A stretch of 64,000 bases of DNA, taken from Patescibacteria group bacterium (GTDB lineage: Bacteria; Patescibacteriota; Gracilibacteria; UBA4473). Positions 53,828 through 59,470 of this stretch are shown here, piece by piece. The DNA is taken from contig CBFIAK010000001.1 in the NCBI GenBank assembly GCA_965660445.1, positions 384,001 through 448,000 of the forward strand, in the 5' to 3' direction. The position numbers and the translations under genes were made by a program. A model generated the notes under the pieces. The model saw only the letters and a list, made by a program, of their open reading frames with translations. It searched no databases and was not told the origin of the DNA. Positions within the stretch are counted from its first letter, which is position 1. Every line of letters starts with the position of its first letter.

Positions 53828-54454
53828 TCAGTGTTTTTGTTTTTGAGCTAGTACAACAAAATTTTTGTTGTTTACGCAGTGGGACTCAAGACATTGAAAC
53901 CCATTTTTTTGGGTCAGATTTCGTAGTTCTCTATCACTTACTCGTCTATATGTTCGAGGATATTTTTGAGTACCAAATGGGACGTTCCAGTTTTTAAAGC
54001 GACCTCGAAGGATATTGGGCCAGAAATGTTTTTTTGGTATTTTCCAAGTGGTAAGAAAAAGGATTCCATTCGGTTTGAGCACTCGAAAACATTCGGAGAG
54101 AAACTGGTTTTGTTCATGGCGTGACAAAAGATGATGGAATGAAGCAATACCAATAATCATATCAAATGTATCGGACCCAAAAACGAGAGGTTCTTTCATA
54201 TCCTGAAGAAAAAAGTGATCATGCGGGTATTGAGACCTTGCTATATCTAGAAACTCTTGTGAGTTATCGAACCCAAAATAACACCCTTCTTGGTGACGAT
54301 GTTCAGACAAAAATGATCGCAATCGTCCATTTCCGCATCCCGCATCGAGAATCCGAGCATGAGGGGATATAAATGGGGCGCACATTTCAAACTCTTCCCA
54401 ATGAAAATGGCGAGTACGAGAAAAATCGTGAGCAAAAGAGTCGTATTGTGCCAT
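53828..54454 (-). CDS. Class I SAM-dependent methyltransferase
   Basis: ILDAGCGNGR, ASFHHL, RVLKPNG. Confidence 0.9.
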   Translation of the reverse strand: MAQYDSFAHDFSRTRHFHWEEFEMCAPFISPHARILDAGCGNGRLRSFLSEHRHQEGCYFGFDNSQEFLDIARSQYPHDHFFLQDMKEPLVFGSDTFDMIIGIASFHHLLSRHEQNQFLSECFRVLKPNGILFLTTWKIPKKHFWPNILRGRFKNWNVPFGTQKYPRTYRRVSDRELRNLTQKNGFQCLESHCVNNKNFVVLAQKQKH

Positions 54455-54539
54455 GCCTTATAAAAGGGATACAAAGGGATGATACTCGTATTTGTAAGGA
54501 GTGCAAATGAAGGATATTTAGGGGAAAACTATTTTTTAT

Positions 54540-54568
54540 TTGCAAAAAATTTTTTTCTGTGGTACAAT
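54540..54568 (+). promoter_or_regulatory. Sigma70-type promoter TTGCAA-17-TACAAT with extended -10 TG
   Basis: Read directly; points into the noncoding interval and is followed by boxA-like GTTCATTGAAA. Confidence 0.6.
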
Positions 54569-54574
54569 ATCTAG

Positions 54575-55073
54575 ATTTGTTCATTGAAAGTTCGAAAAAA
54601 ACGGAGAGTGTGGAGAAGAGGAGTCCTCTCTTCCCATAAACTATATAATTTTTATTTTCCTATTTTATTATATTGGGCATAAGAGTCGGTATTGCTCTTT
54701 TCCACTCTCTCCGCTTTGCGATGTCGTTCTAGCGCCTATAGACTACGCTTAGAATGCACCACAAAACGCGAGAGGCACGATTTTCAAAAAGACGACTTGT
54801 TCTTCGAAAGAAAAGAAGCCGCCTTCTCGAAAACCGTTTTGAGGTATTTTACCAAAATACAGTCTGTACAATACTTATTTTATAATAACTTGTCAAATAA
54901 GATTCTACACCCAAAGACTCTGATCGGTAACGCAGGAATCCCGATTTATCGGGAAGAGAAGATTACCCAAGCAAGGCAAGAGAACAGATTCCTAGTCAGA
55001 ATCATAAAAGACCGATACTTTATTTTACTCGATAATTATGAGTTTTCAAAATAAAGGACATTATCGGTCTTTT
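54575..55073. ncRNA. Candidate structured noncoding RNA locus (family not recognised)
   Basis: Series of long helices, convergent promoters and terminal U-tract hairpins; see findings. Confidence 0.5.
54868..54896 (-). promoter_or_regulatory. Sigma70-type promoter TTGACA-17-TATTGT on the minus strand
   Basis: Plus strand shows ACAATA (54868-54873) and TGTCAA (54891-54896). Confidence 0.55.
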
Positions 55074-55074
55074 T

Positions 55075-56166
55075 TTATTTCCCGAGAATATGTTGGTAAT
55101 CAGTTTTGTAGATATGGAGGAATGCGATAGTAAGGGTGAGAATAATCGGTCCAAGGATAATTCCTTTGAGTCCAAACATTAAAGCTCCTCCTAAAATCAT
55201 AATCATAACAGCGAGTGGATGCAGTGTTGCTTTTGATCCAATAATGTATGGTTTGAGTACATTATCAATATTGGCAACGAGGAGCACAGCCCAAAGGATA
55301 AGAAACACTGCTGATACAATTTCTCCGGATATGAGGAAGTAGACACTTAAAGGAATCCATATAATGGCAGATCCTACATAAGGAATGGGGGAAAGGAGTG
55401 CTCCGAGAGCAGCCCAAAAGATACTGTTTTGGATACCTAAAATACCAAATCCAATTCCAAGGACTATTCCTTGTGCTAGAGCACCGCCGAACATACCAAA
55501 GACAATAGAGTTCATTGCATTTTCTATTCGTACAAATAATGCATTTTTATGGGACATATCAAGAGGGATGAGGGTTTTGATATATTTGATGAAGTTCTGT
55601 CCATCACGAATAAAATAAAAAAGAGCGACGAGGAATATAATCAAATGGATAATAACGATGGATATTTGTTTGATGATATTGGCGGTATGTTCGATTAAAA
55701 ATGCGCTTATAGAACGAACGATATCGGTAGCAGTGTTGGCTATATTTTCAACGGAGAACGGGTTATTTTTTAAGAAACTTTCTGCCCATGCGTGAAGATA
55801 GGGGAATCGGTCAAAGACACTGATATCAAATGATGGTTCGGCATCGAGGTTTTGCAAGGCAATACGCATATGATCGTAGGCGCTATAGGCTTGACCAATA
55901 ATTGAGAGAATAAAAAACGTAAGAGGAATAAGGAAGAGTATTATGATGAGCATAAATGTCACGAACGACGCCACTGAATTAGAAAACTTGATCCATTGCT
56001 GAATAATTTTGTGGAGTGGATATATAGACACCGCTGTCATTCCAGCAGCAAAAAGCGTTGCGAGAAATGGCAAAGCGAAAAAGAATGAGAGAACGACAAA
56101 AAAAAGTGCTGCTCCGAGGAGGAAATTTTCTTGAAACCGATAATTCTGGAATTTTATAGGTGGCAT
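55075..56166 (-). CDS. AI-2E family transporter
   Basis: FYFIRDG, IPYVGS, DNVLKP, GG..MFG..GIILGP. Confidence 0.9.
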   Translation of the reverse strand: MPPIKFQNYRFQENFLLGAALFFVVLSFFFALPFLATLFAAGMTAVSIYPLHKIIQQWIKFSNSVASFVTFMLIIILFLIPLTFFILSIIGQAYSAYDHMRIALQNLDAEPSFDISVFDRFPYLHAWAESFLKNNPFSVENIANTATDIVRSISAFLIEHTANIIKQISIVIIHLIIFLVALFYFIRDGQNFIKYIKTLIPLDMSHKNALFVRIENAMNSIVFGMFGGALAQGIVLGIGFGILGIQNSIFWAALGALLSPIPYVGSAIIWIPLSVYFLISGEIVSAVFLILWAVLLVANIDNVLKPYIIGSKATLHPLAVMIMILGGALMFGLKGIILGPIILTLTIAFLHIYKTDYQHILGK

Positions 56167-56368
56167 TTCGGTTATTACGATGTGTAGTATGAGAAAAGAT
56201 TTTTATTTTTCAAGGTTGGGCATGGTTTTTCAGTGGAATCGTTCTTAAAAGTGTTTTAAAAAAATATTTGAAAAACAATACAAGTTATTTTTTCCCGAAA
56301 ATTTGATTTGTGAAGATGAAGCTCTTATTATGCTTGTGTTTACACATACACATAACACACATATACAT

Positions 56369-56884
56369 ATGAAAAAAACACATGCTGGTTTTTCGCTCAT
56401 TGAGCTCTTAGTTGTGATTGTTATCATGGGGATCTTAGCAACGATTTCTTTGGGAACCTTCCAAGGATTTTTTGCCAAATCTCGTGACTCTGATCGACAA
56501 GCTATTTTCGCAACTCTAAAAACAGCTATTGTAGCTGATAGAACAGGAAGCTCGGAGGGATATGATATTACTCAAGATTCTGATTATAGCGATGTGGAGA
56601 CATATATTGCCACTTTAATGGATGATAATGAGTTAGATCTTTCGTATGATGATGGATGTTATTATGCTGGGTTTGGTACGGATACAGCGAATACAAAGCG
56701 AAATTTCTTCTTGGCTTTCTTAAAAGAAGATACTGGTGAGATGGAATATTTTGGTACAAAAGATGGTATAGCAGCTGCAGCCGCTGTTTATGATTCAAAT
56801 GTTGTGAATGTCTTTGAGGATGGAGGAAACTGTGCGGCAGCAAGTGTTTCTGATTATACAGTAGAGCAGTTGTTTGATTCGTGA
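56369..56884 (+). CDS. Type IV pilin (prepilin with class III signal)
   Basis: MKKTHAG|FSLIELLVVIVIMGILA; two Cys; own terminator. Confidence 0.92.
   Translation: MKKTHAGFSLIELLVVIVIMGILATISLGTFQGFFAKSRDSDRQAIFATLKTAIVADRTGSSEGYDITQDSDYSDVETYIATLMDDNELDLSYDDGCYYAGFGTDTANTKRNFFLAFLKEDTGEMEYFGTKDGIAAAAAVYDSNVVNVFEDGGNCAAASVSDYTVEQLFDS

Positions 56885-57541: not shown

Positions 57542-59470
<1,929 letters not shown>

Follow-up and report, generated by a model that had tools for sequence, protein, structure and literature searches.

What occupies a 620-bp gap between two minus-strand genes in the 0.99-Mb, five-contig genome (G000) of a Patescibacteria group bacterium of the Gracilibacteria lineage? 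The gap lies in a 64,000-nucleotide stretch of contig CBFIAK010000001.1 (G000:C1:384001-448000), here called the window, and an initial annotation had proposed that it houses an undescribed noncoding RNA or an antisense-controlled module. This proposal is supported by comparison with related genomes. At gathering thresholds, Rfam 15 yields just three tRNAs in the window, none of them at the module; nothing relevant was found by the same means in seven related loci; and covariation is abundant in the alignments of relatives. The best explanation, held here with intermediate confidence, is that the module consists of two overlapping, convergent noncoding RNA genes, one for a plus-strand RNA of ∼0.5 kb and the other for a minus-strand cis-antisense RNA of ∼270 nucleotides (nt), designated RNA-B, that would control the plus-strand RNA.

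Convergent promoters in a family-specific module

The two promoters described in the initial annotation lie where it had placed them (Table 1). On the plus strand, P(+) has 9 of 12 matches and a TG extension; on the minus strand, P(−) has 10 of 12. A simple promoter scan reported 6 sites against 3.5 ± 1.9 expected, which is weak evidence taken alone. Among 31 related loci, the best site on the P(+) strand reached at least 9 of 12 in 28 loci (TTGACA-17-TAAGAT/TACAAT type), and the best site at the place expected for P(−) did so in 26, both figures being raw counts taken without a shuffle or chance control. The promoters recur in place across genera, facing each other, with the hexamers and a spacing of 16 to 18 nt kept while the spacer sequence drifts. 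Transcripts that start at two such convergent sites must overlap, and the arrangement is that of a predicted cis-antisense pair.

The boxA-like leader downstream of P(+), TTGTTCATTGAAA, was found as annotated. Relatives carry GTTCTTTnAA or GATCTTTnAC as the corresponding element, and its reverse complement, AAAGAAC or AAAGATC, is conserved after hairpin H3. In the 16S rRNA leader of the same genome, the promoter TTGACA-17-TACAAT is followed by GCTCTTTTTCATTTCGAAC, for which the module has GTTCATTGAAAGTTCGAAA as the counterpart. That leader carries GCTCTTTTTCA; compared with the boxA consensus, the element in the window is a weak match.

At the other end of the module, the terminal plus-strand hairpin P1 has its arms at 55006-55017 and 55062-55073 and a run of seven T residues at 55070-55076, all as annotated. 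The hairpin does have the form of a terminator, as had been proposed, but its apical part (AGAACUC...GAGURRAAC in the minus-strand reading) is conserved as well, so it appears to be more than a terminator. A promoter-like site, TTGAAA-16-TAAAAT (10 of 12), is also found inside the P1 hairpin, on the minus strand at 55049-55022 of the window. For RNA-B, the long interrupted hairpin H3 followed by seven U residues (54601-54595) was likewise seen as described. Among the loci read, a U-run directly after H3 is present only in the window and in loci L002 and L105, and the candidate end formed by H3 and U7 is therefore not general. A simple terminator scan reported no terminator because its loop limit is 3 to 8 nt, while these hairpins have long interiors.

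Both strands of the module have a strong folding potential. Segment 54590-54862 has a folding energy of −92.5 kcal/mol on the minus strand (z = −7.0), which none of 200 shuffled sequences matched, and of −80.4 on the plus strand (z = −5.3); for the whole plus-strand RNA, 54575-55082, the value is −139.6 (z = −5.8).

The module is confined to one family. In a BLASTN comparison with 40 relatives, positions 54706-54846 of the window had counterparts of 76 to 86% identity in 10 of 24 genomes from other genera of the family and none in any other family. Within this region, a 17-mer, CAUCGCAAAGCGGAGAG in the minus-strand reading, is invariant in alignments A1 and A2. An exact scan for the 17-mer across 185,579 species genomes returned 72 stretches, against ∼70 hits expected by chance in the scanned DNA according to our own arithmetic. 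The full architecture accompanies the 17-mer in 21 of these stretches, all from metagenome-assembled genomes (MAGs) that are labeled Peribacteria, Gracilibacteria or Altimarinota or are unnamed “bacterium” MAGs; the remaining 51 are in unrelated taxa and lack the accompanying features. Two covariance models were used for further searches: R1, which represents the RNA-B core and was built from alignment A2, and R2, which represents the pseudoknot region described below and was built from alignment A4. R1 matches 34 of the 43 family genomes, in 20 of 25 genera, and none of 92 genomes across 29 other families of the class. R2 matches 33 of the 43 family genomes and, outside the family, gives just three marginal matches (E values of 0.005 to 0.007). 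Where both models are listed, the R2 match is always 150 to 250 nt upstream of the R1 match on the same strand.

Strand-specific base pairing

From G-U pairs, the initial annotation had argued for selection at the RNA level. The argument holds for hairpin H1, as a part of a minus-strand RNA, but the strongest long-range constraints fit a plus-strand RNA instead. One of these is helix LR. An invariant octamer, GCCUUGCU, preceded by CUCUC in the minus-strand reading, is complementary to the region of the 17-mer over 7 + 5 bp. Across 32 sequences, the 7-bp core of this helix includes 185 Watson-Crick pairs, 34 G-U pairs and 5 mismatches when read on the plus strand, compared to 185 Watson-Crick pairs, 4 G-U pairs and 35 mismatches on the minus strand, where a central C-A mismatch is present in 31 of the 32. 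A compensatory change on both sides of one pair is found in a paralog in genome G012 and in locus L117, the changes in L112 and L117 stay paired on the plus strand only, and so do the copies in genome G010 (GCCAUGC/GCACAGC). The unconstrained minimum free energy (MFE) fold of the plus-strand RNA of the window contains LR, together with P1, hairpin P2 and stem S1 of an H-type pseudoknot.

The pseudoknot itself is supported by covariation: 83% of the alignment cells are paired, changes on both sides are seen at 6 of 9 pairs, and the covariation score is 0.242, compared to 0.103 in shuffled alignments (0 of 500 reach the observed value) and at most 0.096 when the pairing is slid. Its strand was assigned from context because its stems are almost all Watson-Crick. 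The further minus-strand G-U pairs that had been reported for helices in 54916-55003 were not borne out, given that in the window both the pseudoknot stems and P2 are Watson-Crick.

A tertiary contact is also predicted between the loops of H2 and P2, which would kiss in the plus-strand RNA. At least seven complementary types of this loop pair were identified (GACUA/UAGUC, GACAA/UUGUC, AAACC/GGUUU, AAAUCA/UGAUUU, GACGA/UCGUC, AACUA/UAGUU and AACCA/UGGUU), and a loop variant in L118 pairs on the plus strand only. The mean complementarity is 4.13 for loops of the same locus versus 3.05 for cross pairs, a value that none of 2,000 permutations reached, although these permutations, like the pseudoknot shuffles, ignore the kinship of the genomes. 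At least four Watson-Crick loop pairs are formed in 20 of 30 loci when the loops are picked automatically; the 30 include four loci with mispicked loops (L105, L108, L109 and L125), and L038 could not be parsed. Inspected by eye, the loops of the four mispicked loci look complementary and are kept outside the counts.

All these partners are brought together only in a plus-strand unit that extends from P(+) to P1, because P(−) starts transcription downstream of P2, the octamer and the pseudoknot and because, in relatives, the terminators of the upstream genes abut P1. This geometry bears directly on the possibility that the minus strand alone is functional, either as one long transcript that enters from the upstream gene and covers P1, P2, the pseudoknot and RNA-B or as two adjacent minus-strand RNAs, with P(+) interfering with them or belonging to the promoter region of a divergent ruvB gene. 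Such an arrangement would account for the G-U pairs in H1 and in the outer stem of H2, for the better folding of both subregions in the minus orientation, for those kissing-loop wobbles that favor the minus strand and for the U-run that follows P1 on the minus strand as well. It is nevertheless judged unlikely. In relatives, the terminator of the upstream gene leaves no space for a minus-strand promoter upstream of P1; the C-A mismatch at the center of LR and the plus-only pairing in L112, L117, G010 and the L118 loops are not expected of a minus-strand RNA; and P(+) is kept in the window, where ruvB is absent, and in two reduced paralogs.

RNA-B nonetheless has pairing of its own that points to the minus strand. 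Read along that strand, the module runs through P1 (55073-55006), P2 (55002-54988), the octamer, the pseudoknot (54967-54920), P(−), segment 1, H1, segment 2, H2, the 17-mer, H3 and AAAGAAC (the reverse complement of the boxA-like element), after which comes P(+) on the opposite strand. The arms at 54777-54798 and 54816-54837 do form, as annotated, an unbroken 22-bp minus-strand helix with five G-U pairs that would be A-C on the plus strand, and this helix, H1, is present in the MFE fold. In alignment A3, the H1 core is 98% paired, with changes on both sides at 6 of 7 pairs. Its cells in 31 sequences comprise 116 Watson-Crick pairs, 48 G-U pairs, 2 A-C pairs and 2 others, and two of the G-U pairs are invariant; divergent genera have extra wobbles at other H1 positions, each of which would be an A-C mismatch on the plus strand. 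Because the G-U pairs are kept (48 G-U versus 2 A-C cells), H1 is taken to fold as minus-strand RNA. The A3 counts of both-sided changes include two low-scoring secondary matches (L117:1158-1276 and L103:1571-1701), which were dropped for the 31-row G-U count. The first of these is a weak second match of the RNA-B model (24.6 bits) in L117 (G007:C55); it precedes the main copy by ∼340 nt on the same strand and points to a partial duplication in tandem. The G-U pattern of H1 and the conservation of P(−) support a predicted minus-strand transcript of ∼270 nt, from 54861 to ∼54595 in the window.

The outer stem of H2 likewise points to the minus strand; it comprises 255 Watson-Crick, 81 G-U and 18 A-C cells, and no pair in its lower part has changes on both sides; in the inner stem, both-sided changes are found at all 8 pairs. 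Helix H0, which joins segments 1 and 2, has both-sided changes at 6 of 9 pairs, with CG↔UA and AU↔GC exchanges between the segments. H0 and the outer stem of H2 share segment 2 and are thus mutually exclusive, yet both are compatible with the alignment, which suggests that RNA-B may undergo conformational switching. Over 19 loci, the summed MFE of the RNA-B region is −1590 in the minus orientation versus −1446 in the plus orientation. In a gappy alignment of 10 close relatives, RNAalifold did not clearly separate the two orientations (−198.8 for the minus, −214.8 for the plus).

The opposite simplification, in which the plus-strand RNA of ∼0.5 kb is the only functional product, treats P(−) and the H1 wobbles as by-products, the former of a symmetric −10 element (which reads TACAAT on the plus strand too, 54867-54872) and the latter of A-C, possibly protonated, pairs. 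LR, the pseudoknot, the kissing loops, P(+) and the terminator would all fit a single plus-strand RNA of this kind, and further agreement comes from reduced paralogs of the module, of which two were read. The first is a second copy in G000 at C1:265378-265900 (locus L012, 1400-1920), in which the internal promoter is degenerate and the opposite-strand promoter, TTGACA-17-TAAGAT, is of the consensus type; the other is in G012, on contig C225. Both keep P(+), the boxA-like element, both strands of LR, an H2-like hairpin, the pseudoknot, P2 and P1, and both lack H1 and a good P(−). Overall, 9 of the 43 genomes have two or three R2 copies. Because the paralogs retain the parts of the plus-strand RNA without H1 or P(−), that RNA looks like the common and ancestral core, to which the putative H1/P(−) antisense gene would have been added in the main copy. 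Against a plus-strand RNA as the sole product stand the predominance of G-U over A-C cells in H1, the further wobbles of divergent genera, which on the plus strand would turn into A-C mismatches at scattered positions, and the spacing of the P(−) hexamers, which is held at 16 to 18 nt across a drifting spacer, as for a working promoter. This explanation, too, is considered improbable.

Several observations weigh against the favored explanation of two convergent RNA genes, in addition to the limits given above for the promoter counts and for the permutation and shuffle statistics. LR mostly consists of two invariant blocks, with variation limited to the G012 paralog, L117, L112, L032, the G010 copies and one genus (four sequences), and in that genus the change in the 17-mer favors the minus strand, where it gives a wobble, over the plus strand, where it gives a mismatch. 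The wobble extensions of the kissing loops favor the minus strand in four loci and the plus strand in four. If H1 folds on the minus strand only, the plus-strand RNA would carry ∼60 nt that are poorly paired. Of the 28 loci in which H3 could be parsed (3 of 31 could not), 17 fold it more stably as plus-strand RNA and 11 as minus-strand RNA, and most relatives lack a U-tract after H3 that could end RNA-B. The putative boxA is assigned by resemblance only, and to a weakly matching copy in the window. Finally, in about one-third of the loci read (L099-L104, L106, L107, L121 and L125), a GC-rich hairpin followed by 6 to 8 U residues, in the form of a terminator, lies 20 to 60 nt past the P(−) start, ahead of the point where the conserved part of RNA-B begins. 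The window has no such hairpin; where present, it would shorten RNA-B, which the favored explanation does not account for.

Table 1 Features of the module and the genes that border it, in window coordinates
Feature	Position	Strand	Remarks
Class I methyltransferase gene	53828-54454	−	Borders the gap
P(+) promoter, TTGCAA-17-TACAAT + TG extension	54540-54568	+	Predicted start of the plus-strand RNA near 54575
boxA-like leader element, TTGTTCATTGAAA	54577-54589	+	Function inferred by resemblance
U7 tract after H3	54595-54601	−	Possible 3′ end of RNA-B in this genome
H3, long hairpin with variable interior, closed by GGAGAG/CUCUCC	54602-54712		Closing pairs conserved, inner pairs covary
Invariant 17-mer, CAUCGCAAAGCGGAGAG (minus reading)	54707-54723		CUCUC (54707-54711) + GCUUUGC (54713-54719) form the 5′ strand of LR on the plus strand
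H2 inner hairpin, loop GACUA at 54741-54745 (plus reading)	54727-54754		Loop complementary to the P2 loop
Segment 2, CGUUUUGUGGUG (minus reading)	54757-54768	−	Pairs with segment 1 (H0) or with the invariant 17-mer (H2 outer stem)
H1, 22-bp hairpin, core GGCGGCU/AGUCGUC (54823-54817 with 54797-54791)	54777-54837	−	Hallmark of RNA-B
Segment 1, ACCUCAAAACG (minus reading), 5′ strand of helix H0	54835-54845	−	
P(−) promoter, TTGACA-17-TATTGT	54868-54896	−	Predicted start of RNA-B near 54861
H-type pseudoknot; S2, CUG (54920-54922)/CAG (54933-54935); S1, GGUAA (54926-54930)/UUACC (54963-54967); inserted hairpin, 54940-54953	54920-54967	+	Alignment A4
LR 3′ strand, GCAAGGC (54971-54977) + AGAG tract	54971-54984	+	Pairs with 54707-54719
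P2 hairpin, loop UAGUC at 54993-54997	54988-55002	+	Predicted kissing with the H2 loop
P1, long hairpin + T7	55006-55076	+	Predicted intrinsic terminator of the plus-strand RNA; form bidirectional
AI-2E family transporter gene	55075-56166	−	Borders the gap on the other side

Neighboring genes and other identities

The genes next to the module vary. In the direction of RNA-B, the module is followed by ruvB in at least eight loci, by yebC in three and by the methyltransferase gene in the window; one locus has a gene for polysaccharide synthesis there, and one a LigT-like gene in convergent orientation. On the opposite flank, 4 of the 10 loci scanned share a gene for an S1-domain protein, at least two have a U32 peptidase gene, and other genes are found elsewhere. 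In the relatives, ruvB has its own promoter-like site beyond P(+). Among 13 loci compared, neither strand has an open reading frame (ORF) that keeps its position or length, and the candidate identity of a coding region was rejected on that count. With the flanking genes varying, ruvB having its own promoter and no ORF being conserved, the module is therefore taken to be a self-contained noncoding unit.

Two features of the surroundings are recorded for completeness. In the ruvB promoter region of the relatives (for example, L103 at ∼2150-2200, between P(+) and ruvB), a GTATA-N5-6-GTAT(A/T)C repeat is conserved directly after the −10 element and may be an operator, e.g., for an SOS-type repressor. 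In the window, the genes just beyond the transporter gene include one whose product resembles a type IV pilin and has a methylation motif at its N terminus (56303-56884, plus strand) and gyrB (57542-59440, minus strand).

An alternative is that RNA-B is a cis-acting riboswitch or attenuator that senses a ligand or factor through H1/H0 and controls, through H3 and U7, read-through into ruvB, yebC or, in the window, the methyltransferase gene (54454-53828). ruvB or yebC is downstream in the same direction in many loci, the exclusive helices H0 and H2 both fit the alignment, the module includes a chain of complementary GAGAG/CUCUC segments, and in the window U7 comes directly after H3. Different loci have different downstream genes, however, and the one in L002/L105 is convergent; the conserved opposite promoter and, in relatives, the separate ruvB promoter lie between RNA-B and the gene; most relatives lack the U-tract; no known aptamer is matched in Rfam; and the pseudoknot, LR and the kissing loops, all upstream of the RNA-B promoter, would be left unexplained. 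A leader of the downstream gene was thus largely rejected, given the variety of these genes, the convergent orientation of one of them and the separate promoter that intervenes, and the riboswitch or attenuator form of this explanation is regarded as quite unlikely.

Convergent overlapping units with a shared bidirectional terminator also resemble some type I toxin-antitoxin systems, in which a small toxin ORF is opposed by an antisense RNA, and the presence of two or three copies in some genomes would be compatible either with such a system or with a remnant of a mobile element or the end of an insertion element. At permissive thresholds, the best Rfam match in 54300-55300 is Sib RNA (RF00113), the antitoxin of the Ibs type I toxins, with which the module shares an antisense arrangement and an alignment over 54598-54745 on the minus strand. 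This match scores 23.7 bits (E = 0.039), below the gathering score of 56, and the aligned part is the variable hairpin H3. Furthermore, no small ORF is conserved opposite, in position or length, on either strand in the 13 loci, the invariant 17-mer has no third-position variation, most genomes have a single copy that is syntenic beside ruvB or yebC, and the flanking genes that were scanned include neither a transposase nor an integrase. A toxin-antitoxin or mobile-element origin is accordingly considered very unlikely.

The last family of explanations invokes a universal RNA too divergent for the Rfam models, such as 6S RNA or signal recognition particle (SRP) RNA. The 6S (RF00013) and SRP RNA (RF00169/RF01854) models have no match in the genome or the window, and RF00169 matches none of 41 family genomes. 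SRP RNA was attractive as a candidate for this reason; it was ruled out because its partner proteins, Ffh and FtsY, are also undetected, in the genome and in a sample of the class. PF02978 (SRP_SPB) and PF00448 (SRP54-type GTPase) have no match in the genome, and among the 61 genomes of the class sample, one is above the PF00448 cutoff, and only by virtue of two partial matches, which cover positions 3-36 and 3-90 of the 196 in the model. A passage in PMC8080830 describes two SRP subunits as missing in Vampirococcus (Absconditabacterium) and “many other CPR bacteria” (CPR, Candidate Phyla Radiation).

For 6S RNA, the architecture provides a further test. 6S RNA is a single long irregular hairpin with a large central bubble, whereas the consensus of the module has at least three separate hairpins, a pseudoknot and a closing helix; together with the lack of a model match, this led to its rejection. 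In addition, the module is confined to one family, while these universal RNAs are broadly distributed, and the idea that it is a divergent member of one of them is viewed as extremely unlikely.

The initial annotation had recognized no transfer-messenger RNA (tmRNA), RNase P, SRP or riboswitch motif, and searches with Rfam and with dedicated models agree, having given no match in the window. Specifically, ARAGORN found no tmRNA in the window, the small-subunit, large-subunit and 5S rRNA models have no match at the module, and tmRNA, RNase P RNA and 5S rRNA were rejected as identities. These RNAs have candidates elsewhere in the genome: a tmRNA at C1:176141-176558 (105 bits), a 5S rRNA at C1:273354-273467 (91 bits) and a single, weak RNase P RNA candidate at C2:32783-33097, which scores 36.5 bits against a gathering score of 100 and is either very divergent or not an RNase P RNA. 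A ColE1-type replication origin or primer RNA was rejected as well: along contig C1, the cumulative GC skew is lowest near 150 kb and highest near 645 kb, and both the module (438.7 kb, in mid-replichore) and its paralog (265.4 kb) lie away from these points. A full-text literature search, with supplements outside its scope, found no large structured RNA of this kind described for this group. The module is rated here as a new family of RNA whose general kind is known, namely, structured noncoding RNAs with a cis-antisense partner.

Proposed mechanism and known counterparts

With two convergent RNA genes as the favored explanation, a mechanism can be proposed in which transcription of both strands, the function of boxA and the regulatory logic are inferred from sequence. 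The plus-strand RNA (∼54575-55076) would start at a strong sigma-70-type promoter with a leader like that of an rRNA operon, in which the boxA-like element may keep RNA polymerase elongating through an untranslated RNA. The transcript would then close through LR, hold the pseudoknot and dock its H2 loop on P2, and the terminal hairpin P1 would also end its transcription. RNA-B (∼54861-54595) would start from its own promoter inside the module and would fold H1, which forms only on the minus strand. The sequence of RNA-B is fully complementary to the 5′ half of the plus-strand RNA, a stretch that takes in the H2 loop as well as the 5′ strand of LR, and the sequence of its own H2 loop is that of the P2 loop. 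Because the two loops are equal, RNA-B can compete with P2 for the H2 loop of the plus-strand RNA. Duplex formation would presumably begin at that loop and block LR, and the pairing would lower the folding, the stability or the amount of the plus-strand RNA, an effect to which polymerase collision during convergent transcription may add.

Antisense pairs of plasmids are among the closest counterparts. In ColE1 RNA II/RNA I and R1 CopT/CopA, as in the module, a long structured RNA is opposed by a shorter antisense RNA from an internal promoter over its 5′ part, loops are available to start kissing, and binding is expected to change the fold of the long RNA. The module differs from these pairs in that it is chromosomal and in mid-replichore, is accompanied by no replication gene, has a competitor loop in cis (P2) and has a much longer antisense RNA; the CopA model scores 17.2 bits against a gathering score of 60, with no sequence match. 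The leaders of rRNA operons, with their boxA antitermination and long-range stems for processing, share with the module a near-consensus sigma-70 promoter, a leader with a boxA-like element (and, in relatives, a small hairpin) and a long-range helix around the body of what would be a stable RNA. Here, however, the body is not rRNA, and the putative boxA of the window is a weak match. Finally, large noncoding RNAs such as OLE, GOLLD, ROOL and raiA resemble the module in their length of several hundred nucleotides, long-range helices, pseudoknot, narrow phylogenetic range and lack of coding capacity, but the module matches none of their Rfam models, resides in a reduced genome of ∼1 Mb, and contains an internal antisense gene and convergent promoters.

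What the plus-strand RNA does can be put forward only as a guess, namely, that it is the scaffold of a lineage-specific ribonucleoprotein. A more far-reaching version, which is entertained here tentatively, is that it may represent a new class of large, ornate, housekeeping-grade noncoding RNA, either a ribonucleoprotein scaffold or a ribozyme, that arose in one family of ultrasmall CPR/Patescibacteria, is transcribed like rRNA and has an antisense regulator that mimics its own tertiary-contact loop. RNAs that are large and structured but lack an assigned function are rare, and the ones studied so far have repeatedly yielded new biochemistry.

The module offers a compact natural case in which the loop that makes a tertiary contact, P2, has the same sequence as the loop of the RNA's own antisense RNA, that is, a candidate for antisense control by competition. 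For annotators, the R1 and R2 models would mark an otherwise blank region in genomes of this family. For the organisms themselves, the module of 0.6 kb, free of genes and kept over 20 genera, is very likely important, because genomes of ∼1 Mb keep little noncoding DNA and yet have kept this module, with structure that is in part invariant and in part covarying.

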